Below, in pieces: positions 26,597 to 39,718 of a stretch of 64,000 bases of DNA (position 1 is the stretch's first letter; the number at the start of each line of letters is the position of its first letter). The notes under the pieces are model-generated. The model saw nothing but the letters and a program-made list of their open reading frames with translations. It was not told the origin of the DNA and searched no databases. Both the position numbers and the translations under genes were made by a program. This DNA comes from an uncultured Arcobacteraceae bacterium (GTDB lineage Bacteria > Campylobacterota > Campylobacteria > Campylobacterales > Arcobacteraceae): the NCBI GenBank assembly GCA_965603755.1, contig CBFDEF010000001.1, positions 2,052 to 66,051 of the forward strand. The letters are read 5' to 3'.

Positions 26597-27700
26597 TTAA
26601 TTAGCAAAAGTAGTTTCCATAAAAACTTTGTTAGCAGTACCATCAAATGTTCTAATACCTAAGTCATCAAGAGCTTTTTCAACTGCATTTACAGCCCAAA
26701 CAGCTTCATAATCAGCAACAAGTCCCATATGATTGATTCTAAAGATTTTACCTTTTAGATGATCTTGTCCACCAGCAATATTTAAATCAAACTTCTCTTT
26801 AAGAACTTTACGAACTGCATTTGACTCTTCACAATAGATTGTAGTCATAGCATTTGCAGGAGTTGTAGGATAAACCTCAAGACCAATTGCATTTAGTGCA
26901 TCTCTTGTAGACTTTGCTCTTAATGCAGTTTTAGCATAAAGATTTTCAAACCCATCCTCTTTTAGTCTCTTTAAAATAGAACCTAATCCAATGATAAGTG
27001 TAGTTGCAGCCGTATAAGCAGTTGTATTAGTTTTTTGTTTTTTAATCTCTGAAGCTAAATTAAAATAATAACCAGCAGATTTTAACTCAATTTTAGCAAC
27101 TGCTTCATTACTAAAACCAATCATAGAAAGACCAGGAGGAAGCATAAGTGCTTTTTGACTGCCAGTAATTAGTGCATCAATGTTTGTAGTATCAATTTTT
27201 TCAACACCAACAGCAGTGATACCATCAGCTACTATAGTAATATCAGCATTAATATCTTTTACAGCTTTTGCAATAGCTTCAACAGGATGTCTTAATCCAC
27301 CTGCACTTTCACAAACTTGTATAAAAATAGCATCAATATCACTATCAGTCTTTATAGCTTCAACTATCTCTTCTACAGATGCAGCAGTATTCCACTCATG
27401 TTTAATCTCAACGCTAGGGATATTATGAGCAGCACAAATTTTTCCAAATCTGTCTCCAAATTTTCCACTATTTACAGTCAATGCTTTCTTATGTGTAAGA
27501 TTAGTGATACAAGCTTCCATAGCCCCAGTACCGCTTGATGCTAACATAACGCACTCAGGCATATCAAAAAGTTCTAATAATAATTCTCTAGTATTTTTAA
27601 ATATATTTTCAAATTCAGGTGTTCTATGGTGTAATGTTTCACCAGCCATATCAGTTCTAACAAACTCAGGAACGGCTGTAGGGCCAGGAGTCAAAAGCAT
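26597..27700 (-). CDS. Class V aminotransferase (serine-glyoxylate / alanine-glyoxylate family)
   Basis: 'LLTPGPT..P', 'HHRTPEF', 'SGTGAMEA', PLP-Lys context 'TGSQKALMLPPGLS'. Confidence 0.8.
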   Translation of the reverse strand: MLLTPGPTAVPEFVRTDMAGETLHHRTPEFENIFKNTRELLLELFDMPECVMLASSGTGAMEACITNLTHKKALTVNSGKFGDRFGKICAAHNIPSVEIKHEWNTAASVEEIVEAIKTDSDIDAIFIQVCESAGGLRHPVEAIAKAVKDINADITIVADGITAVGVEKIDTTNIDALITGSQKALMLPPGLSMIGFSNEAVAKIELKSAGYYFNLASEIKKQKTNTTAYTAATTLIIGLGSILKRLKEDGFENLYAKTALRAKSTRDALNAIGLEVYPTTPANAMTTIYCEESNAVRKVLKEKFDLNIAGGQDHLKGKIFRINHMGLVADYEAVWAVNAVEKALDDLGIRTFDGTANKVFMETTFAN

Positions 27701-27860
27701 AATAATCCTTTAAAAAAATTCAGTAATTGTCAATAAGTATATCTAAAATTGTATAAAAAAATACTTTAAAAAAATTTAGATTGGGTTTGAATTATATTAA
27801 AATATAATAGAGTTTAAAAGTTTAAAAAAAATTTAAATCCTATTTGCTATCATACTTACT

Positions 27861-29261
27861 ATGAATGACTTTAAAAATAAAAACATCTACTTTTCAGGTC
27901 GAGGTGAAAAGATAGATAAAGATGAACTTATAAAATATTTTTTACAACATGAAGCTATGATGGTTGAAGATGTTAATGATGCAAATATTATTATCGAAGG
28001 ATATATGAGTCCTGTTTACCTTGAAGATAAGTTTTATGAACTATCTTTTAATGGAGTTAAAGTTATAAAGATAGAGGATATTGAAAAAGAGTTTAGTAAA
28101 AAGCTTAATATTGATAATATTATTATGGCTATTAAAATATCAAAAGATAAAGATAGATTGATAAAACTTTTAAACAATAGATATTTTAGTGATGATATAT
28201 TTGTAACACTACTTAAGTATTATAATTGGGGAGATGAAGGTCTTTATGAAAGTAACGAAAATCGTGATATATCAACTGCAATTGTAAGTAGATTTTGTTC
28301 TTTTGTTGAATCCAATCACAATATTCAGCACTCATCTATTGGTATATATTATACAGCTTTGGAAACAACAAACAGTAAACTTTTAGAGATTATATTTAAT
28401 ATGCCAACGTTTAAAATAAGTGATAAAAATGCTTTACAAGACCAACCACTTACTTTAAGAGATGTCGTAGCTTTAAATCCTAACACTCCAAAAGTAGTAA
28501 TGATGCAGATACTAAAAGATAATAATTATGAAGAGCTAAAGTTTTTATCATCGAATCAGTCTATAAATAACCTCATCGTAAATAAACTTTTTAAATTAAA
28601 TGATACAAATATAACAATAAATTTAATCAAATCAAACAATTTAGAACTTTCTAAGATAAAAATAATGTTAGATGATACGATATTAAAAGTAGTTGTATTA
28701 AAAAATAGTCATTTAAGTGATGAACTTTTTGATATACTGATAAACTCAAATTTGACTGATGTAGAACTTATCTATCTATCTTCAAACAATTCATTAATCA
28801 GTACTCAAATAGATAAAATTTTCACATATGATATTGATAATGCAAATATTAACTTACTAAAAAATACTGAATGCTCAAAAAATAAAATAAAAGAGTTTTT
28901 ACAAAAAGATGATTTAGTTTACAATATAGCAATAGCACATAATATTAGCTTGGATAATGAAATATTTGAACAATTAAATTTAATGGATGATATAAATATA
29001 GAGTTAACTCTTTGCTATAATGTAACAACACCAAAAGATATTTTGAAATATTTATTTGAGAAACAAAAAGATGTGTTAAATGAGGCATTAAGTCAAAATG
29101 TAAATACACCTATAAATATATTGATGCAACTGCAAGTTGACAACCGATACACCACAAATGTAGCAAACAATGAAACTTATAGAGAGTTTTCGAGAAATAG
29201 CCTAGGGATTATACAAGATGATAGCAATAGATTTAAAAGAAACATTAGTAGCGTTAATTGA
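27861..29261 (+). CDS. BRCT-like N-terminal domain plus a leucine-rich-variant (LRV)-type repeat protein, function unknown
   Basis: 'IYFSGRGEKIDKDELIKYF..ANIIIEG' is BRCT-like. About 9 degenerate ~25-aa repeats follow, e.g. 'ALNPNTPKVVMMQIL', 'YNVTTPKDILKYL', 'SQNVNTPINILMQL'. Confidence 0.6.
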   Translation: MNDFKNKNIYFSGRGEKIDKDELIKYFLQHEAMMVEDVNDANIIIEGYMSPVYLEDKFYELSFNGVKVIKIEDIEKEFSKKLNIDNIIMAIKISKDKDRLIKLLNNRYFSDDIFVTLLKYYNWGDEGLYESNENRDISTAIVSRFCSFVESNHNIQHSSIGIYYTALETTNSKLLEIIFNMPTFKISDKNALQDQPLTLRDVVALNPNTPKVVMMQILKDNNYEELKFLSSNQSINNLIVNKLFKLNDTNITINLIKSNNLELSKIKIMLDDTILKVVVLKNSHLSDELFDILINSNLTDVELIYLSSNNSLISTQIDKIFTYDIDNANINLLKNTECSKNKIKEFLQKDDLVYNIAIAHNISLDNEIFEQLNLMDDINIELTLCYNVTTPKDILKYLFEKQKDVLNEALSQNVNTPINILMQLQVDNRYTTNVANNETYREFSRNSLGIIQDDSNRFKRNISSVN

Positions 29262-30222
29262 TTCACAAATACCTGTATTTGTATGGGGGAATCCAGGGGT
29301 TGGTAAATCTTCACTTGTAGCACAAATTTCACAAGAAAAAAAGATGAAGTTTATAGATTTACGACTTTCTCTTCTTGATCCTACTGACTTAAGAGGTATA
29401 CCATTTTTTAACTCTGATGAGAAAAAAGCAGTTTGGGCAAAACCTGAGTTTTTACCAGATGAGACAAGCCAAGAGTTTGGGATACTTTTTTTAGATGAGA
29501 TAAACTCTGCACCACCTACAATTCAAGCTGCTGCTTACCAACTAATACTTGATAGAAAAATAGGTGAATATACTTTACCAAAAAACTATTCTATTATTGC
29601 AGCTGGAAACTATGAAAGTGATAGAGGGGTAACTTATCGTATGCCTACACCTTTAGCGAATAGATTTGTTCACTTAAACTTTGATATAGATTTTGAGAGT
29701 TGGAAGCTTTGGGCATATAAAGCAAACATAGATAAAAGAATCATCTCTTATCTTAGTTATAAACAAACTGATCTTTTTATGTTTGACCCTAAAAGTGGAA
29801 ATAAATCATTTGCCACTCCTAGAAGCTGGAAGTTTGTAGATGACATTTTAAAATCTAAACTTGATATTAAACTTTTACAAAGTGTTATAAGTGGTGCCAT
29901 TGGTTATGATATTTCAAATGAGTTTATTAACTATTGCAAGGTTATAGATGAGCTACCAAATATCAATAATATTATAGATGGTATAGAAGTAGAAGTTCCA
30001 TCAAAGAACTCTGCACTTTTTGCTATGTGTATTGGGATAGTTTATGCACTAAAAAATAATCTATCTACTCAAAACCTAACAAATGTATTAAACTTCTCAT
30101 TAACTTTAAACGGTGAGTTTGCAGTGATGTTAATAAGAGATATGCAAAAAAATAGTATAGATGTAGAGAGTTCGCCTGCTTGGAGCCGATGGGTAGATGC
30201 ACATAGATTTTTAATAGGATAG
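29218..30222 (+). CDS. MoxR-class AAA+ ATPase (AAA_5-like)
   Basis: Walker A 'GNPGVGKSS', Walker B 'ILFLDEIN', 'IIAAGN', 'ANRF'. Start overlaps the upstream ORF by 44 nt. Confidence 0.8.
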   Translation: MIAIDLKETLVALIDSQIPVFVWGNPGVGKSSLVAQISQEKKMKFIDLRLSLLDPTDLRGIPFFNSDEKKAVWAKPEFLPDETSQEFGILFLDEINSAPPTIQAAAYQLILDRKIGEYTLPKNYSIIAAGNYESDRGVTYRMPTPLANRFVHLNFDIDFESWKLWAYKANIDKRIISYLSYKQTDLFMFDPKSGNKSFATPRSWKFVDDILKSKLDIKLLQSVISGAIGYDISNEFINYCKVIDELPNINNIIDGIEVEVPSKNSALFAMCIGIVYALKNNLSTQNLTNVLNFSLTLNGEFAVMLIRDMQKNSIDVESSPAWSRWVDAHRFLIG

Positions 30223-30234
30223 ATAAATTTCAAA

Positions 30235-31593
30235 ATGAGAAAAAATGAGCTATTAACTAAAGATATTAAAATACTTATAAAACAAATAGCAATACCATCT
30301 AGTATTGGTATGTTTTTTAATACTATGTATAATGTAGTAGATACATTTTATGTAGGGATGATATCTACTGTTGCTATTACAGCTTTATCTTATAGTTTTG
30401 TAGTTTTTTTTATGTTGCTTTCTATTAGTTTTGGTTTCTCATCTGCTATTACTGCTCATGTGGGAAACTCACTAGGGAAACATAAATATTTTTTAGCAAA
30501 GATATTTGTAAGCAATGGTCTAACTTTTATAGCTATAGTCTCAACTATACTATGTAGTTTTGGTTTTATCTTTTTAGAAGATATATTTTCATTGATGGGG
30601 GCAAGTGGAGAATCCCTTGAGTTAGCCTTACAATATACCTATGTGATTTTAATAGGTGTGATACCTATGCTTCTAGGACTTGGAGCAAATGCAGTTTTAA
30701 TATCTTTAGGTGATACTAAAAGCTATAGAAATACACTGGTATTCGGTTTTTTTCTAAATCTTATTTTAGACCCTTTATTTATTTATGGATATGGTTTTGT
30801 ACCTGCTTTTGGATTTAAAGGGGTTGCTTATGCTACTATTTTTATACAGTTTATCACCTTTTCATATATACTTTATAAACTAAACAAAACTAAACTTTTT
30901 AATTTTGAAATGCCAAAACTTTTTTTACCAGATATAAGAATATATAAAAAACTATTAAGACAAGCGCTACCTATGAGTATCAATATGTTTACAATGTCAC
31001 TTGGTACCATGGTGATTATGTATTTTATTTCACACTATGGATATAAAGCAGTTGCTGCTTTTGGGATAGGATATAGAGTTGAGCAGATTATACTTTTGCC
31101 AATGTTAGGATTAAATACTGCAGTTAGTTCAATAGTCGCAAATAACTATGGGGCTAAAAACTATGATAGAATCTTTGAGGTTATTAGTAAATCTTTAAAA
31201 TATGGATATATTATGAGTGCACTTGGGGTAGTACTACTTAGTATATTTGGAAAATATATAATTATGTTGTTTGACAATGACCCTCAAGTTATTAGTATGG
31301 CATATGAGTATGTGATAGTTGAGAGTATCATATTTTTTGCATTTATCACTATTTTTATATCAAATTCTACTCTTCAAGGTATAAAAGAACCATTTATCAT
31401 TCCATATGTAAGCTTATATAGACAACTACTTATGCCTACAATATTTTTATATATCTTAGTAAATATTTTTAATGTTGAGATATTATATGTATGGATATGT
31501 ATGGCAATTATTATCTATAGTGCAGCTATTTGGATCTATATTTATACTCAAAGAAAACTCGTACTTTTATCAAAAAGGACAAAAGGTATATAA
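30235..31593 (+). CDS. MATE-family efflux transporter
   Basis: 452 aa with ~12 predicted TM helices. N-terminal 'PSSIGMFFNTMYNVVDTFYVG' is typical of MatE, and the internal duplication is evident. Confidence 0.9.
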   Translation: MRKNELLTKDIKILIKQIAIPSSIGMFFNTMYNVVDTFYVGMISTVAITALSYSFVVFFMLLSISFGFSSAITAHVGNSLGKHKYFLAKIFVSNGLTFIAIVSTILCSFGFIFLEDIFSLMGASGESLELALQYTYVILIGVIPMLLGLGANAVLISLGDTKSYRNTLVFGFFLNLILDPLFIYGYGFVPAFGFKGVAYATIFIQFITFSYILYKLNKTKLFNFEMPKLFLPDIRIYKKLLRQALPMSINMFTMSLGTMVIMYFISHYGYKAVAAFGIGYRVEQIILLPMLGLNTAVSSIVANNYGAKNYDRIFEVISKSLKYGYIMSALGVVLLSIFGKYIIMLFDNDPQVISMAYEYVIVESIIFFAFITIFISNSTLQGIKEPFIIPYVSLYRQLLMPTIFLYILVNIFNVEILYVWICMAIIIYSAAIWIYIYTQRKLVLLSKRTKGI

Positions 31594-31596
31594 CTT

Positions 31597-32691
31597 ATGA
31601 TAAATATCAAAAAAAGAATAGAACAGGCAAAAGCTCTACTTTTAATAGAGCAGCCCTATTTTGGTTCAATTGCCTCTGCTCAAAAATCCAAACTAAATGA
31701 AGATATTCAAACTTTTACAAGTGACCCTGAGTTTTTCCAATACAACGATGATTATATTGATTGTTTAGGTGATGATGAGTTAAAGTTTATACTTACAAAC
31801 TCTGCAATGCATCAAGCTTTAGGATATGAAAATAGACAAGATGGAAGGATGTCATGGCTTTGGACTATGGCACAAGATTATGCAATAAATTCACTTTTAG
31901 TAAATAACGGTCTTGAACTTCCCGATGCTCTTTTATATGATGATAAATTTGATGAAATGAGCTGTGAAGCTATTTATAAAATTCTTGAAGATGAGATAGA
32001 TGATGATAAGCATACACCCAAAGAGGTAGAAAATATAAGATATGAAAAGATGCCTGATACAAATGAATACGATGAAGACCCCGCAGAAATCACAGATATG
32101 AATCAGCAACTTCTAAACAAAGCTAAACTACAAGGTGATCTTCCTCTTGGAATTGAGATACTAGTTCCTAGACTAAATAAAAGTGAAATATCTTGGAGAG
32201 ATGAACTTTATACAGTTATTGAAAACTCTGTAAAATTTGACTATACTCTATCTCCTCCAAATAAAAGATACTTATGGCAAGGTATCGCACTACCAGCACT
32301 AAGTGGAACAAAAGTAAAAATAGTAATTGCAATAGATAGTTCAGGTTCAATTGATACTAAGCTTTTATCAATATTTTTAAGTGAAACCGAGTCTATATTA
32401 AACCAGTTTGAAAACTTTGAGATAGACCTTCTTATTGCTGATGCCAAAGTACATGAGCATCATATCATATATCCAGGTGACAGTATAGAGTACAATATAA
32501 AAGGTGGAGGTGGTACAAATTTTGAGGAGACATTTAAATATATTGATGAAAATATAAACGATATTACATTGATGTTATATTTTACAGATGGATTAGGTAA
32601 GTTTCCCGAAGATGAGCCATTTTATGATGTTGTATGGGTTATGCCCAAAGAAAGACAAACTCTCCCTTTTGGAAGAGTTATAAATCTCTAA
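31597..32691 (+). CDS. DUF2201-type protein: peptidase-like N-domain (degenerate HExxH) plus vWA domain
   Basis: 'LLIEQPYFGSIA' and 'NSAMHQALG' sit where the family carries HExxH. vWA MIDAS 'AIDSSGSID' and 'YFTDG'. Start is 3 nt after the MATE stop. Confidence 0.75.
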   Translation: MINIKKRIEQAKALLLIEQPYFGSIASAQKSKLNEDIQTFTSDPEFFQYNDDYIDCLGDDELKFILTNSAMHQALGYENRQDGRMSWLWTMAQDYAINSLLVNNGLELPDALLYDDKFDEMSCEAIYKILEDEIDDDKHTPKEVENIRYEKMPDTNEYDEDPAEITDMNQQLLNKAKLQGDLPLGIEILVPRLNKSEISWRDELYTVIENSVKFDYTLSPPNKRYLWQGIALPALSGTKVKIVIAIDSSGSIDTKLLSIFLSETESILNQFENFEIDLLIADAKVHEHHIIYPGDSIEYNIKGGGGTNFEETFKYIDENINDITLMLYFTDGLGKFPEDEPFYDVVWVMPKERQTLPFGRVINL

Positions 32692-32699
32692 AAATATAG

Positions 32700-33383
32700 T
32701 TACTCTTGCATCTCTTTATCTAGAACTTCTATACCTTCATTTACAAGTTTATCTATCTCTATAAATACATCATTTGATGTATTTAAAATAGAATCAAACT
32801 CTTTTACATCTTCAACTAGTTCGTTAAATGAACTAACTGTTTCTAAAGCTATAATTAAATTATTCCCTTTTAATATTGAACCCTCTAAATATTGTAAGTT
32901 TTTCTCTATTTTAGTAATATTATTAGCCATCTTTATAGCTTTGCCTTTGCTGTACTCTTTCATTCTAGTTTTAAGTTTTTCATCATTTTTAATCTTATCA
33001 AGATTAGTGTCTAGATTATCTACAAAATTTTCTGTTTCATCTTTATATACAACAAATTTTTCTCTTAAAACCACAACTTCTCGTTCAGCATTTTTCCATT
33101 TTCTTATAAAGTTTTTTGTATTTTCATTCTTAAATACATACTTAACCTCTTTAGCTTTTGATTGTGCATCTAATGCTTCTTTATAGCTATTTTTAACTGT
33201 ATCTTTTTGTTCAGAAAACTCCTCTATTGCTTCTTTAAACTGTACAAGATATTTTGGGCTATCTTTATATATATAATTTTCTTCAACATATGGCCAAACA
33301 AAAAAGTATCCAATTATGGCTATTAAAATTATTTGAAAAGTTGAAATTCCTGATTTCATATTATTTAATTTATTACTGTGCAT
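32700..33383 (-). CDS. Single-pass membrane-anchored coiled-coil protein, unknown function
   Basis: TM 'FQIILIAIIGYFFVW' followed by ~190 aa of charged helical sequence. Last gene of the sensor operon. Confidence 0.5.
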   Translation of the reverse strand: MHSNKLNNMKSGISTFQIILIAIIGYFFVWPYVEENYIYKDSPKYLVQFKEAIEEFSEQKDTVKNSYKEALDAQSKAKEVKYVFKNENTKNFIRKWKNAEREVVVLREKFVVYKDETENFVDNLDTNLDKIKNDEKLKTRMKEYSKGKAIKMANNITKIEKNLQYLEGSILKGNNLIIALETVSSFNELVEDVKEFDSILNTSNDVFIEIDKLVNEGIEVLDKEMQE

Positions 33384-33445: not shown

Positions 33446-34408
33446 CTATACTTCAAACTGTAGTGTTAATATAAACTCTGTACCTTCTGCTGATGTATTA
33501 ACATCTACTGTTCCGTTTAAATGTTTTTCCATACTCTCTCTTACCATATATAATCCAAGCCCTACGCCTTGACTTTGATGTTTTGTTGTAAAATATGGAT
33601 TAAAGATTTTTGGTAATATATCTTGTTCAATACCATTTGCATTATCTTTTATAATTATTTTTAAATTATTATCATCTGTATACATCTCTACTATAATCTC
33701 TTTTTCTTGCTCTTGCTCAACTTTTACAAGGGCGTCTTGAGAATTTTTTATTATATTTAAAACTACTTGGGATAAACTTCCCTCATTAATATAAAACTCA
33801 ATCTCATCATCTGGAAATTTTGTTGATATTTGCAAATCATCATTTTTTAATGAAGAGGAGATAACATCAATTGTTGTTTTTAATAAGTTTTGAACTATCA
33901 CTTCATTTTTTTCATTTTTTTGATTTACAAAATCTCTAAAGTTGTTAATAATGGAAGATAATTCTTGTGTAGTATCTGCAATATTTTTAATTGCTTTATT
34001 TTCTTCCTCTTCATCAGATAGACCCATATCTCGCATCACTTGCATTCCCGTTGCTGAACTACTTATTGCATTGAGAGGTTGTCTCCACTGATGAGCAATA
34101 TTACTTATTAATTCACCTAGTTGTGCAAATCTTGCTTGATCATTAAGTTGTTTATCTTTAATTCTATTTGATTCTACCTCTTCTTTTACTCTTTGTTCAA
34201 GGTTTTTATTTAAGTCTCTTAACTCTTTTGTTTTTTCATCAACTTTTAACTCTAAATAATTTTTATATTGATCAAGCTCTTCGTTCAGTTTAATCATCTC
34301 AAACTGCTGTCTATCACTTTGTTTAATTATTTTATCAAGTCGTCTGCTTTTTCTTTCATTGTCTTTTAATAATGCAGCAGTATCTATATTTTTTTCTTTT
34401 TCTGACAT
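33446..34408 (-). CDS. Soluble histidine kinase with no recognisable input domain
   Basis: N-terminal coiled coil, H-box 'IAHQWRQPL', 'DNANGIE', 'GVGLGLYMVR'. No TM segment. Start is 3 nt after the giant sensor gene. Confidence 0.8.
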   Translation of the reverse strand: MSEKEKNIDTAALLKDNERKSRRLDKIIKQSDRQQFEMIKLNEELDQYKNYLELKVDEKTKELRDLNKNLEQRVKEEVESNRIKDKQLNDQARFAQLGELISNIAHQWRQPLNAISSSATGMQVMRDMGLSDEEEENKAIKNIADTTQELSSIINNFRDFVNQKNEKNEVIVQNLLKTTIDVISSSLKNDDLQISTKFPDDEIEFYINEGSLSQVVLNIIKNSQDALVKVEQEQEKEIIVEMYTDDNNLKIIIKDNANGIEQDILPKIFNPYFTTKHQSQGVGLGLYMVRESMEKHLNGTVDVNTSAEGTEFILTLQFEV

Positions 34409-34411
34409 GTT

Positions 34412-37400
34412 TTATACCTTTGTTTTTTCTTTTTTACGAGCAACCACAACTGCACTAAACTCAAAAGAGAATTTCTCTTTATTTATAGCTTTAAAATTAT
34501 ATTCTATACTTTGTGCAAATTTTGCAATCTCATAAAATCCAATTCCACCACCATGTTCATGTGTATTTTCTCCAGATCTTCGAAGTTCTCTATATCTTTT
34601 TTTAACACCATCTTGATCAAGTGCTTGTATCTCTAGAAGTTTTGGTTCTATTTTATCTTTATCTTCAATTGATATAATATTTTTACTTCTTAGATAGTAT
34701 TTATCATCATCTGTTTTTTCTACATATATTAAACCTGCTGGTCTTATATCTCTACATACAGTATCTTTTGACTTTGAATATTTCATCATATTTTGTGTAA
34801 GTTCTATTGCCATTGTTGAGATATTTCCCAATATACCTATATTTGATATATTATGTTCTAAAATATCCATACAATGAGTAATAATACCTTGTGTTAATAC
34901 TCCATCATACTCTAAAATTATATCAGGCGATGTTGATGGTTCTTTTATCTCAAATGATATTACAGTCATATCATCATTTCTATCATTATTTACAATCATA
35001 TTTTCATATCTATTCATCTCATATAAAAATATTTCTTCCTGCTCAAACATAGAGTAAGTATGATAATCTTTAATAATATTTCCAAATCTTTTTTTACCAA
35101 AGGGAAAATCTTTCTCTCCACCATTTTGATCTAAGTATCCATCTGTTGTACAATAAAATTTCATACCCTCTTTTACTTCAATAATTGTTTCTTTATACTC
35201 ATAATCCATATCACACTTTTTATAACCTACTGAGTATCTATTCCCTTTTATTGTATTAAAAGTTCCATCTGTATCAATATAAAATAGTGGTGTTTCTGCT
35301 CCTGCAAATTTAAGTATCTGTTGTTTTCTATTATAGTAGATAATTCCACCATCCCAACCTACATTTGAAAGGCTATTTTTTGTCTCTTGTTTTAGAAGTA
35401 TTTTCATTGTTCGATTAAAATATCTCATTATCCAAGCGGGACTCACTTCCATATCTTTATTATTTTTAATTATTGATACTATCTCTCTCTCAACTGCTTT
35501 TACAAGCATAGTTACAAAAGCCCCTGGCACTCCATGACCAGTACAATCAATATACATCAATAAACATTCATCATCATTTCTTAATTCATTAAATAGATAT
35601 ATATCTCCGCCAACTGTATCTTTTGGATGCCAAATTACAAAATAATCTTTAAAATAGTTTCCTAGTAAATTATTATCAGGAATTAAAGCACCTTGAATTA
35701 AAGCTGCATATTCTATAGAATCTCTTGTTTGTTTATGTACTGTTCTAACTTCATTTTCTATTATCTTTTGTTTTGAAATATCTGTAACCATACCAATATA
35801 TGAATCTACATCATGATATGTAATAGGTGTTACAGATAACAATGCTGTAAACTCTTTTCCATTTGATTTTTTAAATGTCTGTTCTAAGTTTTCAACAAAT
35901 CCTTTTTTTTCTATCTCTTCAATTATATATTGCTGTTGATTTTCTACTGTATATACATCGTCAATACTTCTACCAATTATTTTGTTTAATGGCATCTCGT
36001 ATTGTCTTTGTGCATATTTATTTGCATACAATACTTTTCTATTTTCTTTTGAAGTGATAAGAACAGGAAGTAAAATATTTGATAATATTTGTTCTGTCTC
36101 ATACTGTGCCTTTTCTATCACTTCAAACTGTTCTTTTAAATCTTTTGTTTGCTCTTCAACTTTCTTTTCAAGATTTATTTTTAGCTCTTCAACCTCTTTT
36201 TTATTTGTAATATCAACTCTTAAAGCACTATACCCTATATGATTATTTTTATTATCGTATATTGGTTCGAACTTAGATTCTAGCCAATAGTATGAACCAT
36301 CTTTTTTTAAGTTTTTAATATCTGTTTTAAAACAAGATTGTTTTTGAAGTAAGTCCCATAGCTCAATAAAAACTTCATTTGGCATATCTGGGTGTCTTAA
36401 CATACTATGAGGTTTACCTAAAAGCTCATCCTTACTATATCCAGATATTTCACAAAATGCTTCACTTACATGTGTAATGATTCCATTTAAATCAGTATGA
36501 GAAAAGATAACATTTTTTTCAAATGAAGCTACTAAATTTTCCAATTCATTTTTTTGATTCTCTATATCAGCTGTTTTCTTTTCAACCGTTGTTTTTAATT
36601 TATAGTTACTCAATAAAACAACTACTAAACCTAGAAATATAATACCTGATACTTGTCCAACTAATAGCCAGTCAGTCTCTTTTTGAATTGTTACTTCAGT
36701 CCATTTATAATAAATATCACTTAGCTCTTTTTCACTTATATCAGATATTGCTTTATCTAATATTGAGATAATCTCTGTAGGCATATTTTTTTGTATTGCA
36801 ATTTTTATATCAAAATTAAAGTCAATCTTTGTTGCAATTCTTATATCAGTATAACCCTTTCTTTTTATAAAATATTGTGCCGTTGAAGCGTTAACAACAA
36901 ATATATCAATTTTTTTATCATTTAAACTATCAAATCCCTCTTTTGTTGAATTTAGTATTTGCAAGTTAAGCATAGGATATGTTGTTCTTATATAGTTTTC
37001 TAATGCATTTCCCTTTACTATTGCTACTCTTTTATTTTCTAGAGCATTTTTGATGTCTATATATACTGTATCATCATCTACTCTAGTTACTAATACTGCT
37101 GGAGTTGAATATATTTTTTTTGTAGTAAATTGAGCATATTTTTTTCTCTCTTCATTTTCTACAACTGCACTATACATATTCACTTCATTATTTTCCATTT
37201 TTCTTACAGATTCTTTCCATGATTTTGTACTTATAGGGATAAATTCTATATTAGTTTTTGATGATATTAGACTAAGTACATCAGGTATTATTCCGCTGTG
37301 TTTACCTAGTTCATTTGTCCATTCAAATGGTGCCCAATCTGGATTATAAACATAAGTTAGTGATTGTTTTCTATCCAATAATTTTTGTTCTTCTTCAGTA

Positions 37401-39718
37401 AAATTAATAGTTGTTTTATTTACAATGCTCATCCATCGTGATGCAATTTCTCTTTTTTGTTGTCTAGTTATATTATTTAACGCTTTTGTTAAAATATTGG
37501 CTAATATTTTATATTCTTTTTTTGTAGCCATATAAATTTTTGCTGTATTTCTACTATTTACTGTATTATTTATTTTAATATTTGTTAATAGATTATTTTC
37601 AATAACAAATGTTGTTGAAGGATTATCCCCAATAAACACATCACTCTCTTTTGATTCAACTGATTTTAAACAATCCAAAATTGTAGGTTTTACTATTATT
37701 TTTACTTCTGGATGATTTTCTTTTATCCAATCAATTATTGCATAACCTTTTGCAGCTGCGACTATTTTTCCTTTTAAATCTTTCATATGATTTATCTCAG
37801 GACTATCAACTCTAGTAAAAAAATATTCAGGAAGACTTAAATAAGAAGTTGTGAAATTTGCATATTTCTTTCTATCCTCATTTATATATAAGGCAGGGAG
37901 CATATCAATTTCGCCATTTTTTAAGGCATCAATTAATTCTGTCCAATTTTTACCAATATCATATTTAAATTTCAATCCCGTCAAATTTGTAATTACTTCA
38001 AAATAATCTTTTGCTAGTCCAGTATATGCACCTGACTCATCAACAAAATCAAATGGAGCCCAATCCATCTCACCTCCAACAGTAATAATAGGATGATTTT
38101 TTATCCAACTGATCTCTTCTTTTGTTAGGTTTAGAGAGGTCTCTTTTTTTGAATAATCTTTATCTCTAAATAGTGCTATCTTTTCTTTTGGTATTACACT
38201 ATAAGCTTTATTTATGATTGAGGTAAGCTCATTATATTTTTTATTTATCCCTAGTGATACTTCACTATATTTATTGTATATTGTTTCTACAACTTTTAAA
38301 TTATACTTATCAAGTTTAGCTTGATTTATATTATATAAAATCATTGCAACAGCTTCATTGGTAGTTGATAATTTTTTGTACATATCTTCTTCTGTTAATA
38401 GATCAATTACTTTTGTTGTTTTTGATACATCTTCAATGATTTTATGAGTTATTGACTTTGTTTTAAGATATATTGTATTCTCTTTTAAATCAGATAAAGA
38501 GTGAATATCTTTATTCTCTTTTTTTACAATTAAATAGTGTGGTGTAAAATTATAAGCTTTTGTATAATTGAAATATTTTTTTTCTCTCTCCTTGCTCCAG
38601 CTTAAATTCATAATACCGTGAATATCTTTTCCAACACTTGCAGAAGAAAATCCATCTTTCCATGCATCATACCGTACCGGCATAATATTTAAATTTGAAT
38701 ATTTATTAATTAATTTTAAAATATCAGTATGAATACTGTTACCATCATCGTCTGCAACCCAATAATTCATAACAGCAATTTTAACCATTGGATTATTTTT
38801 CATCCATTTTTTTTCTTCTTTAGTTAGAGTTATAAGTGAATTAGAATTAATTTTATCTACTATCAACATAATATCTTCAAATATTTTATTTTCTATTGTT
38901 TGAATCAGTTCAATTTTTTTTCCGATACTTTTAGACCAATCTTTTGAATTAGCAAAAACTTTATCACCAGATAATATTTTTAATGCTAATTTCTCAAATT
39001 CTTCAACTTTTTCTAATGTTATATCATCCATAGTTTTAAAATATAAATTTTTCATTTTAGTATCTGCATTATGTAAAAAACTTTTCAAGTAAATTTTTTC
39101 TGTTGTATCCGCTGTAAAATAATACTCAAATATATTTTTTGAAAAATTTACATTTGAAAATAATGAACATAATGCAGCCCTTTTTTGACTAAGACTCTCT
39201 TTATTCATATGTATAATAGAGTAAAGATATAATTTATTATTTAACTCTTCATTTTCAAACATATCAGTAATATTTGAAATATTCATTAACATAAATGATA
39301 TTGTTTGAGTATATTTAGAATATGATTTTGTAAAATCTGACTTTAAAATCTTTACTTCATCTCTAGTCTTATATAACTGATCAAATGTATTAAATAAAGC
39401 TTTACTTTGTTCTTTTGAAAAATATTTTTCAAAGATATTTTGATTATTGTTTATAATACTATTTAATATCTTTATTTTTTTGTCACTTTTTCTTATAATA
39501 GATTTAAGTTTTTTATCAAATTTCTTACCATTTGAGCTTATATATACACATGAGGCTCCTCTTTCTTCTTGTAAGGAGTTAATTGTGTCACTCATTGATG
39601 AGATTAATGAAATCACTATATCAAGATGAGTTTGATTTTGTTTGTAATTGTCATTGGCATTAACAAATGTAGTAGTGATATAAAAAAATAATATTAATAA
39701 ATTTACTCTATAATTCAT
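34412..39718 (-). CDS. 1768-aa multidomain sensor: NIT-like, 3x family-3 SBP modules, TM, 2x PAS, SpoIIE/PP2C phosphatase, RsbW/SiaB-like GHKL domain
   Basis: NIT-like 'LQEERGASCVYISS'. Three PBPb modules are each preceded by 'LTKEE..W(M/I)K' ('MDWAPFDF', 'PDWAPFEW'). TM 'WLLVGQVSGIIFLGLVVVLL'. PAS 'HTDLNGIITHVSEAFCEISGY'. PP2C 'GGDIY', 'IDCTGHGVPGA', 'TDGYLDQ', 'DDMTVISF'. GHKL 'ELTQNMMKYS', 'HGGGIGFYE'. Confidence 0.85.
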   Translation of the reverse strand: MNYRVNLLILFFYITTTFVNANDNYKQNQTHLDIVISLISSMSDTINSLQEERGASCVYISSNGKKFDKKLKSIIRKSDKKIKILNSIINNNQNIFEKYFSKEQSKALFNTFDQLYKTRDEVKILKSDFTKSYSKYTQTISFMLMNISNITDMFENEELNNKLYLYSIIHMNKESLSQKRAALCSLFSNVNFSKNIFEYYFTADTTEKIYLKSFLHNADTKMKNLYFKTMDDITLEKVEEFEKLALKILSGDKVFANSKDWSKSIGKKIELIQTIENKIFEDIMLIVDKINSNSLITLTKEEKKWMKNNPMVKIAVMNYWVADDDGNSIHTDILKLINKYSNLNIMPVRYDAWKDGFSSASVGKDIHGIMNLSWSKEREKKYFNYTKAYNFTPHYLIVKKENKDIHSLSDLKENTIYLKTKSITHKIIEDVSKTTKVIDLLTEEDMYKKLSTTNEAVAMILYNINQAKLDKYNLKVVETIYNKYSEVSLGINKKYNELTSIINKAYSVIPKEKIALFRDKDYSKKETSLNLTKEEISWIKNHPIITVGGEMDWAPFDFVDESGAYTGLAKDYFEVITNLTGLKFKYDIGKNWTELIDALKNGEIDMLPALYINEDRKKYANFTTSYLSLPEYFFTRVDSPEINHMKDLKGKIVAAAKGYAIIDWIKENHPEVKIIVKPTILDCLKSVESKESDVFIGDNPSTTFVIENNLLTNIKINNTVNSRNTAKIYMATKKEYKILANILTKALNNITRQQKREIASRWMSIVNKTTINFTEEEQKLLDRKQSLTYVYNPDWAPFEWTNELGKHSGIIPDVLSLISSKTNIEFIPISTKSWKESVRKMENNEVNMYSAVVENEERKKYAQFTTKKIYSTPAVLVTRVDDDTVYIDIKNALENKRVAIVKGNALENYIRTTYPMLNLQILNSTKEGFDSLNDKKIDIFVVNASTAQYFIKRKGYTDIRIATKIDFNFDIKIAIQKNMPTEIISILDKAISDISEKELSDIYYKWTEVTIQKETDWLLVGQVSGIIFLGLVVVLLSNYKLKTTVEKKTADIENQKNELENLVASFEKNVIFSHTDLNGIITHVSEAFCEISGYSKDELLGKPHSMLRHPDMPNEVFIELWDLLQKQSCFKTDIKNLKKDGSYYWLESKFEPIYDNKNNHIGYSALRVDITNKKEVEELKINLEKKVEEQTKDLKEQFEVIEKAQYETEQILSNILLPVLITSKENRKVLYANKYAQRQYEMPLNKIIGRSIDDVYTVENQQQYIIEEIEKKGFVENLEQTFKKSNGKEFTALLSVTPITYHDVDSYIGMVTDISKQKIIENEVRTVHKQTRDSIEYAALIQGALIPDNNLLGNYFKDYFVIWHPKDTVGGDIYLFNELRNDDECLLMYIDCTGHGVPGAFVTMLVKAVEREIVSIIKNNKDMEVSPAWIMRYFNRTMKILLKQETKNSLSNVGWDGGIIYYNRKQQILKFAGAETPLFYIDTDGTFNTIKGNRYSVGYKKCDMDYEYKETIIEVKEGMKFYCTTDGYLDQNGGEKDFPFGKKRFGNIIKDYHTYSMFEQEEIFLYEMNRYENMIVNNDRNDDMTVISFEIKEPSTSPDIILEYDGVLTQGIITHCMDILEHNISNIGILGNISTMAIELTQNMMKYSKSKDTVCRDIRPAGLIYVEKTDDDKYYLRSKNIISIEDKDKIEPKLLEIQALDQDGVKKRYRELRRSGENTHEHGGGIGFYEIAKFAQSIEYNFKAINKEKFSFEFSAVVVARKKEKTKV

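Follow-up and report, generated by a model that had tools for sequence, protein, structure and literature searches.

A conserved three-gene MoxR-type ATPase/vWA system predicted in Campylobacterota, with relatives in phage N4

In a 64,000-nucleotide (nt) stretch of the genome of an uncultured Arcobacteraceae bacterium (assembly GCA_965603755.1, contig CBFDEF010000001.1, positions 2,052 to 66,051; this whole stretch is the window in the following), four closely packed open reading frames (ORFs) encode a BRCT/LRV repeat protein (ORF1), a MoxR-type AAA+ ATPase (ORF2), a MATE efflux transporter (ORF3), and a protein with a vWA domain (ORF4). Comparison of gene order among relatives indicates that ORF1, ORF2, and ORF4 are a conserved, uncharacterised three-gene system in Campylobacterota. 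Taken jointly, the genomic claims, namely a real triad, a MATE gene that is a passenger, a dead peptidase domain in the vWA protein, and the membership of the ATPase/vWA pair in the phage N4 gp24/gp25 family, are held with high confidence. That the triad is a three-component MoxR-type AAA+/vWA system that also acts in the way proposed further below, with ORF3 as an unrelated passenger, we consider moderately probable, which is a compromise between the genomic and the mechanistic parts. The genes are arranged as follows:

26597-27700, minus strand: aminotransferase gene, divergent from ORF1
27701-27860, no strand: intergenic stretch separating ORF1 from the aminotransferase gene, presumed to hold the promoter, no promoter assigned
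27861-29261, plus strand: ORF1, 466 amino acids (aa); BRCT-like N-terminal domain, conserved helical linker, about 10 LRV-type two-helix repeats
29218-30222, plus strand: ORF2, 334 aa; MoxR-type single-domain AAA+ ATPase, phage N4 gp24 subfamily
30235-31593, plus strand: ORF3, 452 aa; MATE efflux transporter, passenger in the ATPase/vWA junction
31597-32691, plus strand: ORF4, 364 aa; minimal-zincin domain, predicted to be inactivated, and vWA domain with complete metal ion-dependent adhesion site (MIDAS); phage N4 gp25 family

The triad was recognised in 80 species-representative loci encoding ORF4 relatives, which were searched with the four window proteins. These loci derive from Campylobacterota or from metagenome-assembled genomes (MAGs) with Campylobacterota-like loci, and they cover Arcobacteraceae, Sulfurimonadaceae, Sulfurovaceae, and Hydrogenimonas. 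Synteny was counted in the 64 loci whose sequence extends 2.6 kb or more beyond the vWA gene on its upstream side. In 56 of these 64 loci, the vWA gene is preceded by the ATPase gene on the same strand, and an ORF1 gene lies upstream of the ATPase gene in 52 of the 56. ORF1 and the ATPase gene are adjacent or overlapping in 43 loci (overlapping in 22); this is the tightest link in the triad, and the vWA gene is linked loosely. In families that share only about 40% identity, all three ORFs are still intact and of full length, and the identities among loci follow taxonomy. Unbiased clustering of all ORFs in the loci revealed no further module-wide gene family and no conserved client gene beside the triad, and the neighbours in the loci inspected are housekeeping genes. 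The first-pass annotation of this DNA had suggested that the repeat protein could be the third component of the ATPase/vWA pair, and this suggestion is borne out by the observed synteny and by the LRV partners outside the phylum that are described below.

Three loci (L026, L027, and L050; the prefix L denotes numbered loci throughout) are Arcobacteraceae- or Campylobacterales-like, with ORF4 relatives that are 38-63% identical, and belong to MAGs that carry the labels Helicobacter sp., Desulfosporosinus sp., and Amylibacter sp. L026 and L027 contain full triads, and L050, which is 1.6 kb long, contains the vWA gene only. These labels are probably binning or labelling errors.

The ATPase/vWA pair is, as judged from sequence similarity, a member of the phage N4 gp24/gp25 family. 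ORF2 matched phrog_1297 with 1.1e-99 (residues 6-328), and ORF4 matched phrog_1314 with 2e-71 (residues 3-363). BLASTP comparisons gave 31% identity of ORF2 to N4 gp24 (4e-47) and 25% identity of ORF4 to N4 gp25 (7e-23), and tblastn gave matches in 853 phage records for ORF2 and in 505 for ORF4, including N4-like and jumbo phages. gp24 and gp25 belong to the 14 core genes of N4-like phages, in which they are classed with the middle genes and carry the entries 'Unknown' and 'vWFA domain' (PMC4193335). As in the window, the ATPase gene of N4 precedes the vWA gene in the same orientation, and the vWA protein combines a zincin with a vWA domain that has the same MIDAS residues. Unlike the phage pair, however, the window pair is chromosomal and lies among housekeeping genes, and the HExxH...H motif that is kept by the phage proteins has been lost in the Campylobacterota proteins. 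In the open-access literature, we found no paper that assigns a function to DUF2201/COG3864 or to the N4-like ATPase/vWA pair, nor did we find an LRV-ATPase-vWA triad, the BRCT fusion, or a lineage-wide zincin loss described there.

The viral sample comprised 80 IMG/VR contigs (L179-L258), 68 of which contain both the ATPase and the vWA gene. The two genes are adjacent in only nine of these 68 contigs, and in four annotated phages they are separated by 2-7 small genes. Besides the pair, 58 of the 80 viral contigs and 17 metagenome or plasmid loci, including Burkholderiales plasmids, encode a conserved protein of about 300-330 aa that has no Pfam match. Where its position was examined, the gene mostly lies directly upstream of the vWA gene and thus between the pair. 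Examples of the gene are:

L181, 6013-6996: gene of the ~300-aa 'middle' protein
L097, 6104-6994: gene of the ~300-aa 'middle' protein
L171, 5123-6034: gene of the ~300-aa 'middle' protein

As the pairs are mostly non-adjacent in phages and the middle protein gene mostly lies between them, an interposed gene is the rule in this family. The middle protein is absent from all Campylobacterota loci and looks like an alternative third component. An LRV partner was found in none of the 80 viral contigs, and a tblastn search of phage genomes with ORF1 gave no match. As an aside on naming, PHROGs and RefSeq phage records give gp25-type proteins (N4 gp25 itself is L095 2165-3307) the label 'HNH endonuclease' or 'homing endonuclease'. 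These proteins consist of DUF2201_N and DUF2201, with folds that match selecase and vWA and no HNH signal, and the 'HNH endonuclease' label is probably a propagated mis-annotation.

For ORF4, the first-pass annotation had described a peptidase-like N-terminal domain followed by a vWA fold with the MIDAS motif DSSGS. Domain matches and coordinates confirmed this, with DUF2201_N at 84.1 bits (cutoff 23.2; 2e-23) and DUF2201 at 75.3 bits (cutoff 26.4; 6e-21); what had been missed was the catalytic loss in this lineage and, for the pair, its identity as phage N4 gp24/gp25. DUF2201 spans residues 242-364 of 364, so that the protein ends with its vWA domain. A comparison with PDB sequences resulted in nothing meaningful. 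In a Foldseek search with the ORF4 model, which has a predicted local distance difference test score (pLDDT) of 72, the N-terminal domain resembled the minimal gluzincin selecase and the C-terminal domain resembled vWA structures, including the MIDAS domain of MDN1. The key motifs are located as follows:

31798-31812, plus strand: degenerate zincin motif N68-S-A-M-H72, which replaces HExxH, from the alignment of homologues
32335-32349, plus strand: MIDAS motif D247-S-S-G-S251, completed by T307 (32515-32517) and D331 (32587-32589)

Both sites were compared in 155 aligned homologues (79 Campylobacterota, 71 metagenome, and 5 phage sequences). HExxH is intact in none of the 79 Campylobacterota proteins, in 69 of the 71 metagenome proteins, and in all five phage proteins. 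The substitution is uniform, as all 79 Campylobacterota sequences have N-[G/S/A]-x-x-H at this position. The MIDAS residues D-S-S-T-D (D247, S249, S251, T307, and D331) are present in 79/79 Campylobacterota, 70/71 metagenome, and 5/5 phage homologues, and the single exception is a sequence that is gapped at the last two positions. Judged by these residues, ORF4 is a predicted pseudo-enzyme in Campylobacterota that has lost a zinc ligand and the catalytic glutamate and has kept its MIDAS. The uniformity of the substitution together with the retained fold points to one ancient, maintained inactivation rather than to decay.

This also bears on the idea that the locus is a decaying prophage or plasmid remnant without present function, which would go along with the phage and plasmid relatives, the lost peptidase motif, and the gene order that is eroded in some genomes. 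We regard this idea as hardly credible, as the ORFs have stayed intact across such distant families, the catalytic ATPase residues and the MIDAS residues are invariant, the zincin substitution is one and the same maintained change, and no phage structural or integrase genes are found nearby.

ORF2 is a compact AAA+ ATPase, as had been noted from its Walker motifs (GNPGVGKSS, residues 24-32, and ILFLDEIN, residues 89-96), and it matched Pfam AAA_3 with 35.7 bits (cutoff 27) and AAA_5 with 26.3 bits (cutoff 22). Across 64 ATPase sequences, the motifs GxPGxGKS, LFLDEIN, AAGN, PLANRF, and PRSW are conserved. An arginine finger and sensor 2 are candidates that were assigned by position only. The two nucleotide-binding motifs are found at these positions:

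29287-29310, plus strand: Walker A, G24-N-P-G-V-G-K-S31, conserved in the 64 sequences
29485-29505, plus strand: Walker B, L90-F-L-D-E-I-N96, conserved in the 64 sequences

Midasin was the sole match among PDB sequences, and homologues in Thermus and in phage CRP-7 carry the annotation 'MoxR family ATPase'. An assignment of the ATPase to the CbbQ/NorQ, CobS, or GvpN clade, which the first-pass annotation had named as speaking against a new system, was checked, and no such clade was matched: no NCBIfam model reached its curated cutoff, no CbbQ/NorQ, CobS, or GvpN model was among the sub-threshold matches listed, Pfam found no CbbQ_C in ORF2, and the CobS-like phrog_249 reached only 5.7e-9 versus the 1.1e-99 of phrog_1297. 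The bpMoxR model scored 12.4 bits, below its cutoff of 27, and PADLOC found generic AAA similarity only (DolB, 3.4e-7, 27.9 bits).

We now turn to the arrangement of the four genes and to ORF3. The first-pass description of four packed plus-strand ORFs that are divergent from the aminotransferase gene was confirmed in all its coordinates, motifs, and spacings, with ORF1 and ORF2 overlapping by 44 nt, a gap of 12 nt between ORF2 and ORF3, and a gap of 3 nt between ORF3 and ORF4. The block from ORF1 to ORF4 is a plus-strand island inside long runs of minus-strand genes. No plus-strand terminator-like sites were found inside the four-gene cluster, and promoter-like matches in the cluster and the divergent intergenic region were no more frequent than expected by chance in this AT-rich DNA. 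One transcript for the four genes, which had been called very likely, is therefore no more than plausible.

ORF3 matched MatE with 166.9 bits in two stretches (4e-49) and TIGR00797 with 222.9 bits (cutoff 147.4). It had been counted as a member of the module, and in such a four-gene functional module the transporter would work together with the ATPase, the vWA protein, and the repeat protein, for example by exporting a product or by being matured by them. The same orientation, the short gaps on both sides, and the lack of an internal terminator would agree with this, as would the fact that L086 and L087, which have a 90% identical ORF4 and the same purA-hisZ-aminotransferase flank, also contain the MATE gene in this arrangement. 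However, membership of the exporter was refuted by its non-co-occurrence in related genomes and by its stand-alone orthologues. No MATE homologue was present in any of the 84 loci of the first locus set, including L005, whose ORF4 is 83% identical, and in L085, with the same flank and an 89% identical ORF4, the gene is missing and the vWA start follows the ATPase stop after only 13 nt. The MATE gene at the triad is limited to relatives that are about 90% identical. The ORF3 protein has 1230 homologues, which are 75-80% identical in other Arcobacteraceae and about 66% identical in Sulfurimonas, and the orthologues elsewhere are stand-alone genes in unrelated neighbourhoods, one of them in a genome whose triad is 0.95 Mb away. 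In other lineages, the junction between the ATPase and vWA genes holds PglB, MCP, SIR2, ferritin, UDG, restriction-modification (R-M), HepT, or histidine kinase genes instead. By these comparisons, ORF3 is an ordinary conserved transporter gene that appears to have been relocated recently into the junction in one narrow lineage and is not a system component; a functional four-gene module is thus very improbable.

The first-pass annotation had also pointed out that it knew of no described MoxR-vWA locus with a MATE exporter between the ATPase and its vWA partner. In this family, an interposed gene as such is not unusual, being found in 59 of the 68 viral contigs and in 22 of the 56 Campylobacterota loci, one of the latter being a frameshift artefact. 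The cargo comprises PglB/STT3, a Cache-MCP chemoreceptor, SIR2, ferritin (in several Sulfurimonas loci), UDG, a hybrid histidine kinase, HepT, and unknown proteins, and further RhuM with a type III R-M system as well as an Eco57I-type methylase with T5orf172. This amounts to at least 10 different unrelated cargo types across Campylobacterota, mostly co-oriented. Defence-type cargo is found in L055 (RhuM and type III R-M), L064 (Eco57I-type methylase and T5orf172), L070 (HepT), and L006 (SIR2). The ATPase/vWA junction may be a recurrent landing site for unrelated genes in phages and bacteria. The cargo-bearing junctions are:

Window, 30223-31596
L006, L008-L014, L016, L019, L053, L055, L056, L059, L061, L062, L064, L070, L073, and L079

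A site-specific insertion at the junction was considered separately and is unsupported, as the flanks showed no direct or inverted repeats other than AT-rich matches expected by chance, and the GC content at third codon positions of the MATE gene is that of its neighbour genes.

ORF1 had no match in Pfam, NCBIfam, or PADLOC, and its description therefore needed a structure model. The AlphaFold model, based on an alignment of 56 homologues, has a pLDDT of 89.4 and consists of an alpha/beta domain (residues 1-80), a helical linker, and about 10 two-helix repeats. In a Foldseek search of the PDB, the best matches were 1LRV, which was on top, and the BRCT domain of RFC1, 2ebu (prob 1.0, root-mean-square deviation (rmsd) 1.9 Å over 72 columns, 21% identity). 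Against a viral structure library, the top matches were phage proteins named 'Leucine rich repeat variant' and a DNA-ligase-like BRCT domain (rmsd 2.4 Å). The distant orthologue P0246 matched Pfam BRCT with 27 bits, above the cutoff of 21.3, and ORF1 orthologues gave weak LRV_2 or LRV matches. LRV repeats are characterised by two-helix units of about 26 residues with the signature N-x-x-T-P...L..L, and the C-terminal two-thirds of ORF1 qualify as such repeats. An ORF1 profile run against 1.84 billion representatives resulted in about 70 full-length orthologue clusters and in thousands of long proteins that match the repeat region only, which are strong Pfam LRV/LRV_2 proteins (down to 3e-126). 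At the level of fold (model and Foldseek) and profile, the earlier description of ORF1 is thus correct for the LRV repeats and probably so for the BRCT domain (profile match of P0246), and the three repeat peptides that it quoted are present. Three regions can be distinguished in ORF1:

27861-28100, plus strand: BRCT-like domain, residues 1-80, beta-alpha-beta-alpha-beta-alpha topology, 2ebu match
28146-28325, plus strand: most conserved stretch, residues ~96-155, from conservation over 54 sequences across the phylum
28455-29201, plus strand: LRV-type repeat array, residues ~199-447, from helix pairs of the model, 1LRV, and profile matches

Conserved residues in these 54 sequences are R99, N106, F114, N134-R135-D136, R144-F145, and H153-N154-I155. 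Divergence is much faster in the ORF1 repeats than in ORF2 or ORF4. P0283, one of the long LRV proteins found with the ORF1 profile, has an N-terminal WGR domain followed by LRV repeats, a layout that resembles ORF1.

LRV proteins accompany the pair also outside the phylum. On plasmid pTHEOS01 of Thermus oshimai JL-2, the gene of an LRV protein (Pfam LRV, 43.6 bits; 296 aa as annotated) overlaps a MoxR gene, which in turn overlaps a DUF2201 vWA gene, and the three genes are annotated only as hypothetical, MoxR family ATPase, and VWA-like. The MoxR ATPase is 39% identical to ORF2 and the vWA protein 29% identical to ORF4, and the locus shares with the window the gene order LRV-MoxR-vWA with overlapping genes. 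In contrast to the window, the LRV protein is shorter and has no Pfam BRCT, the vWA protein keeps HExxH, and the locus is plasmid-borne, with RecQ- and UvrD-type helicases and XerD as neighbours. The alignment of the ORF1 profile with the plasmid neighbours by hhalign was not significant; it exposed an LRV motif in the Thermus protein that was then confirmed with Pfam.

In the metagenome sample, for which the Thermus protein was the lead sequence, the gene directly upstream of the ATPase gene codes for an LRV protein in L104, L108, L112, L119, and L133, with Pfam LRV/LRV_2 E-values of 7e-12 to 1.5e-79, and HEAT/LRV_2-type or LRV-like proteins are encoded downstream of the vWA gene in L116 and L141. 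The LRV-bearing metagenome contigs have a GC content of 0.59-0.73 versus about 0.28 in the window, which indicates that they come from other phyla. In other clades, a protein of about 354 aa is encoded upstream of the ATPase instead of an LRV protein. In a low-GC metagenome clade, a divergent WYL-WCX transcription-factor gene lies directly upstream of the ATPase gene (L115, L118, L122, L123, L125, L129, and L131); in L111, a REC-LuxR regulator occupies this position. Taken at the level of domains and gene order, the family is a constant ATPase/vWA core with clade-specific third components, of which the LRV type is the cellular or plasmid form, and the BRCT domain is a predicted addition to the LRV partner in Campylobacterota.

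The window locus shares its basic design with the characterised systems RavA-ViaA, CbbQ-CbbO, NorQ-NorD, CoxD-CoxE, BchI-BchD, and midasin/Rea1, in all of which a MoxR-class ATPase is paired with a MIDAS-bearing vWA protein. It differs from them in that no family-specific model was matched, in the N-terminal minimal-zincin domain of the vWA protein, and in the LRV/BRCT third protein. The general mechanism of MoxR/vWA pairs is capture by the MIDAS followed by ATP-driven remodelling (PMC7159879). As maturation is the commonest documented role of such pairs (PMC7159879), ORF2 and ORF4 could serve as a maturation or cofactor-insertion chaperone for a specific enzyme, in the manner of CoxD/CoxE, NorQ/NorD, CbbQ/CbbO, or BchI/BchD, with ORF1 as client adaptor. 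The intact ATPase and MIDAS motifs and the ferritin gene in several Sulfurimonas junctions would be in line with this role. However, no lineage has a conserved client gene beside the triad, the ATPase did not match the CbbQ/NorQ, CobS, or GvpN models and preferred phrog_1297 by far over phrog_249, and N4-like phages have the pair among their core genes and express it as middle genes, which is ill-suited to a host-enzyme-specific role. We therefore consider a dedicated maturation chaperone improbable.

A conceptual parallel had been drawn to the vWA-MoxR ternary systems (Kaur et al., 2020), in which the third component is a VMAP, an iSTAND, an FtsH-type AAA+, or a beta-propeller protein, variable effector domains follow C-terminally to the vWA domain, and an origin from CoxD/CoxE has been proposed (PMC7159879). 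This idea holds insofar as the window family also combines an ATPase/vWA core with a third component that varies by clade. It does not hold with respect to the types, as BRCT plus LRV is none of the four published ones. In addition, the vWA protein has no C-terminal effector domain, bpMoxR is below threshold, the pair clusters with N4 gp24/gp25, and the distribution covers unicellular Campylobacterota and phages.

As the published ternary concept (PMC7159879) includes conflict systems, we also weighed an anti-phage or conflict function, in which the domesticated phage ATPase/vWA pair would act as a threshold switch and the fast-evolving LRV array would sense the invader. The close phage relatives of the pair, the rapid divergence of the ORF1 repeats relative to ORF2 and ORF4, the divergent WYL-WCX regulator beside the pair in one metagenome clade, and the R-M, HepT, SIR2, and RhuM genes in some junctions would all be compatible with this function. 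Against it, there is no effector domain, and all 79 members have an inactivated zincin, which would have been the sole enzymatic candidate. PADLOC gave nothing beyond the generic AAA similarity of ORF2 and no match for ORF1, ORF3, and ORF4, the neighbours in the loci inspected are housekeeping genes, and identities follow taxonomy. With a third component that is not VMAP, iSTAND, FtsH, or beta-propeller and with bpMoxR far below its cutoff, a conflict system is in our view unlikely.

Our preferred reading therefore is a remodelling machine, for which we propose the following mechanism, drawn by analogy with the characterised systems; taken alone, it is tentative. The ORF2 ATPase would form a ring, as do characterised MoxR/vWA pairs and midasin, and the vWA domain of ORF4 would be the adaptor that grips an acidic residue of a client via its MIDAS. 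ATP hydrolysis would then remodel or release the client, and with its peptidase dead, the Campylobacterota machine would remodel and not cleave. The LRV solenoid of ORF1 would be a scaffold or specificity factor. Its conserved residues ~96-155, including N134-R135-D136, are a candidate interface with the ATPase or the vWA protein, with D136 as a candidate MIDAS ligand. For the BRCT domain, a role in anchoring the complex at DNA ends or on a phosphorylated partner is possible, but little supports an involvement of DNA. Where lineages have kept an active zincin, the machine may work as an ATP-gated targeted protease.

Several observations weigh against this reading of the triad and its mechanism. 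The vWA gene has no ATPase gene within about 10 kb in eight loci, and in one complete genome ORF1 is about 33 kb away from the ATPase/vWA pair; co-location is thus not obligatory. The ORF4 model is of moderate confidence only (pLDDT 72), and ORF1 of the window itself lacks a Pfam BRCT or LRV match. The phosphate-binding pocket of the BRCT domain, for which an S/T-G after strand 1 and a lysine in helix 2 are characteristic, does not appear to be conserved: the window ORF1 has S12-G13, but of these G13 alone is kept across the 54 sequences, in which no conserved lysine is seen. Finally, the link to DNA is weak, as helicase adjacency is limited to one sub-clade and a few mobile elements.

Some neighbouring genes were considered as components and rejected. 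The idea that the vWA-only loci are parts of large islands was discarded because the upstream genes are housekeeping genes (FtsH, Nuo, Dxs/FliFG, and RNR), indicating rearrangements. A PIF1-like SF1B helicase gene follows the vWA stop on the same strand by 1-9 nt in L037, L039, and L043 and occurs close by in 27 Sulfurimonadaceae-type loci; neither the window nor the Arcobacteraceae loci contain it, and among 80 metagenome loci only one does. This clade-level synteny led us to reject it, and the protein is only marginally similar to the SF1 helicase encoded 18 nt after the gp25 homologue in phage EK8. In Sulfurimonas, one convergent REC-GGDEF gene lies between the vWA gene and the PIF1-like helicase gene. 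REC-GGDEF neighbours, which are present in 35 loci, were rejected as a component because of their convergent orientation and their restriction to Sulfurimonas-type loci.

Downstream of ORF4, the window contains genes on the opposite strand, which we describe for completeness:

32700-33383, minus strand: 227-aa ORF without Pfam match, convergent with ORF4, whose stop is 8 nt away
33446-39718, minus strand: 1768-aa multi-domain sensor and adjacent 320-aa histidine kinase

The 227-aa product is rich in lysine and glutamate and coiled-coil-like in appearance, and L085-L087 have an ORF of 219-226 aa without a Pfam match at the equivalent position. The 1772-aa protein at the sensor position in L086 and L087 has NIT, SBP_bac_3, PAS, and SpoIIE domains, and this block is missing in L085.

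In a wider view, the combination of an LRV protein, a gp24-type AAA+ ATPase, and a gp25-type zincin-vWA protein could be an undescribed cross-phylum ternary system and the cellular counterpart of the N4 core genes. Its ancestor would have been an ATP-gated, MIDAS-targeted protease, from which the pseudo-protease and the BRCT fusion of Campylobacterota would have made a non-proteolytic remodeller that acts at DNA ends or on a phosphoprotein; separately, the junction may be a landing site. This chain of assumptions as a whole is speculative and rather doubtful.

gp24 and gp25 have been core genes of unassigned function since the N4-like group was defined, and they have homologues in hundreds of phage genomes. 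The chromosomal version in free-living Campylobacterota offers a non-phage setting for the pair, with hosts that include cultured Poseidonibacter, Arcobacter, and Sulfurimonas strains. The view of an efflux pump as part of the system was attractive but wrong and is herewith corrected. What the Campylobacterota version does have is an identifiable partner, the predicted BRCT/LRV protein, and a peptidase domain that appears to be naturally inactivated. The active zincin of phages and most bacteria on the one hand and the dead zincin of Campylobacterota on the other would separate the ATPase/MIDAS function from proteolysis, and the recurring LRV partners across phyla would give the functionally obscure LRV repeats a concrete molecular context.

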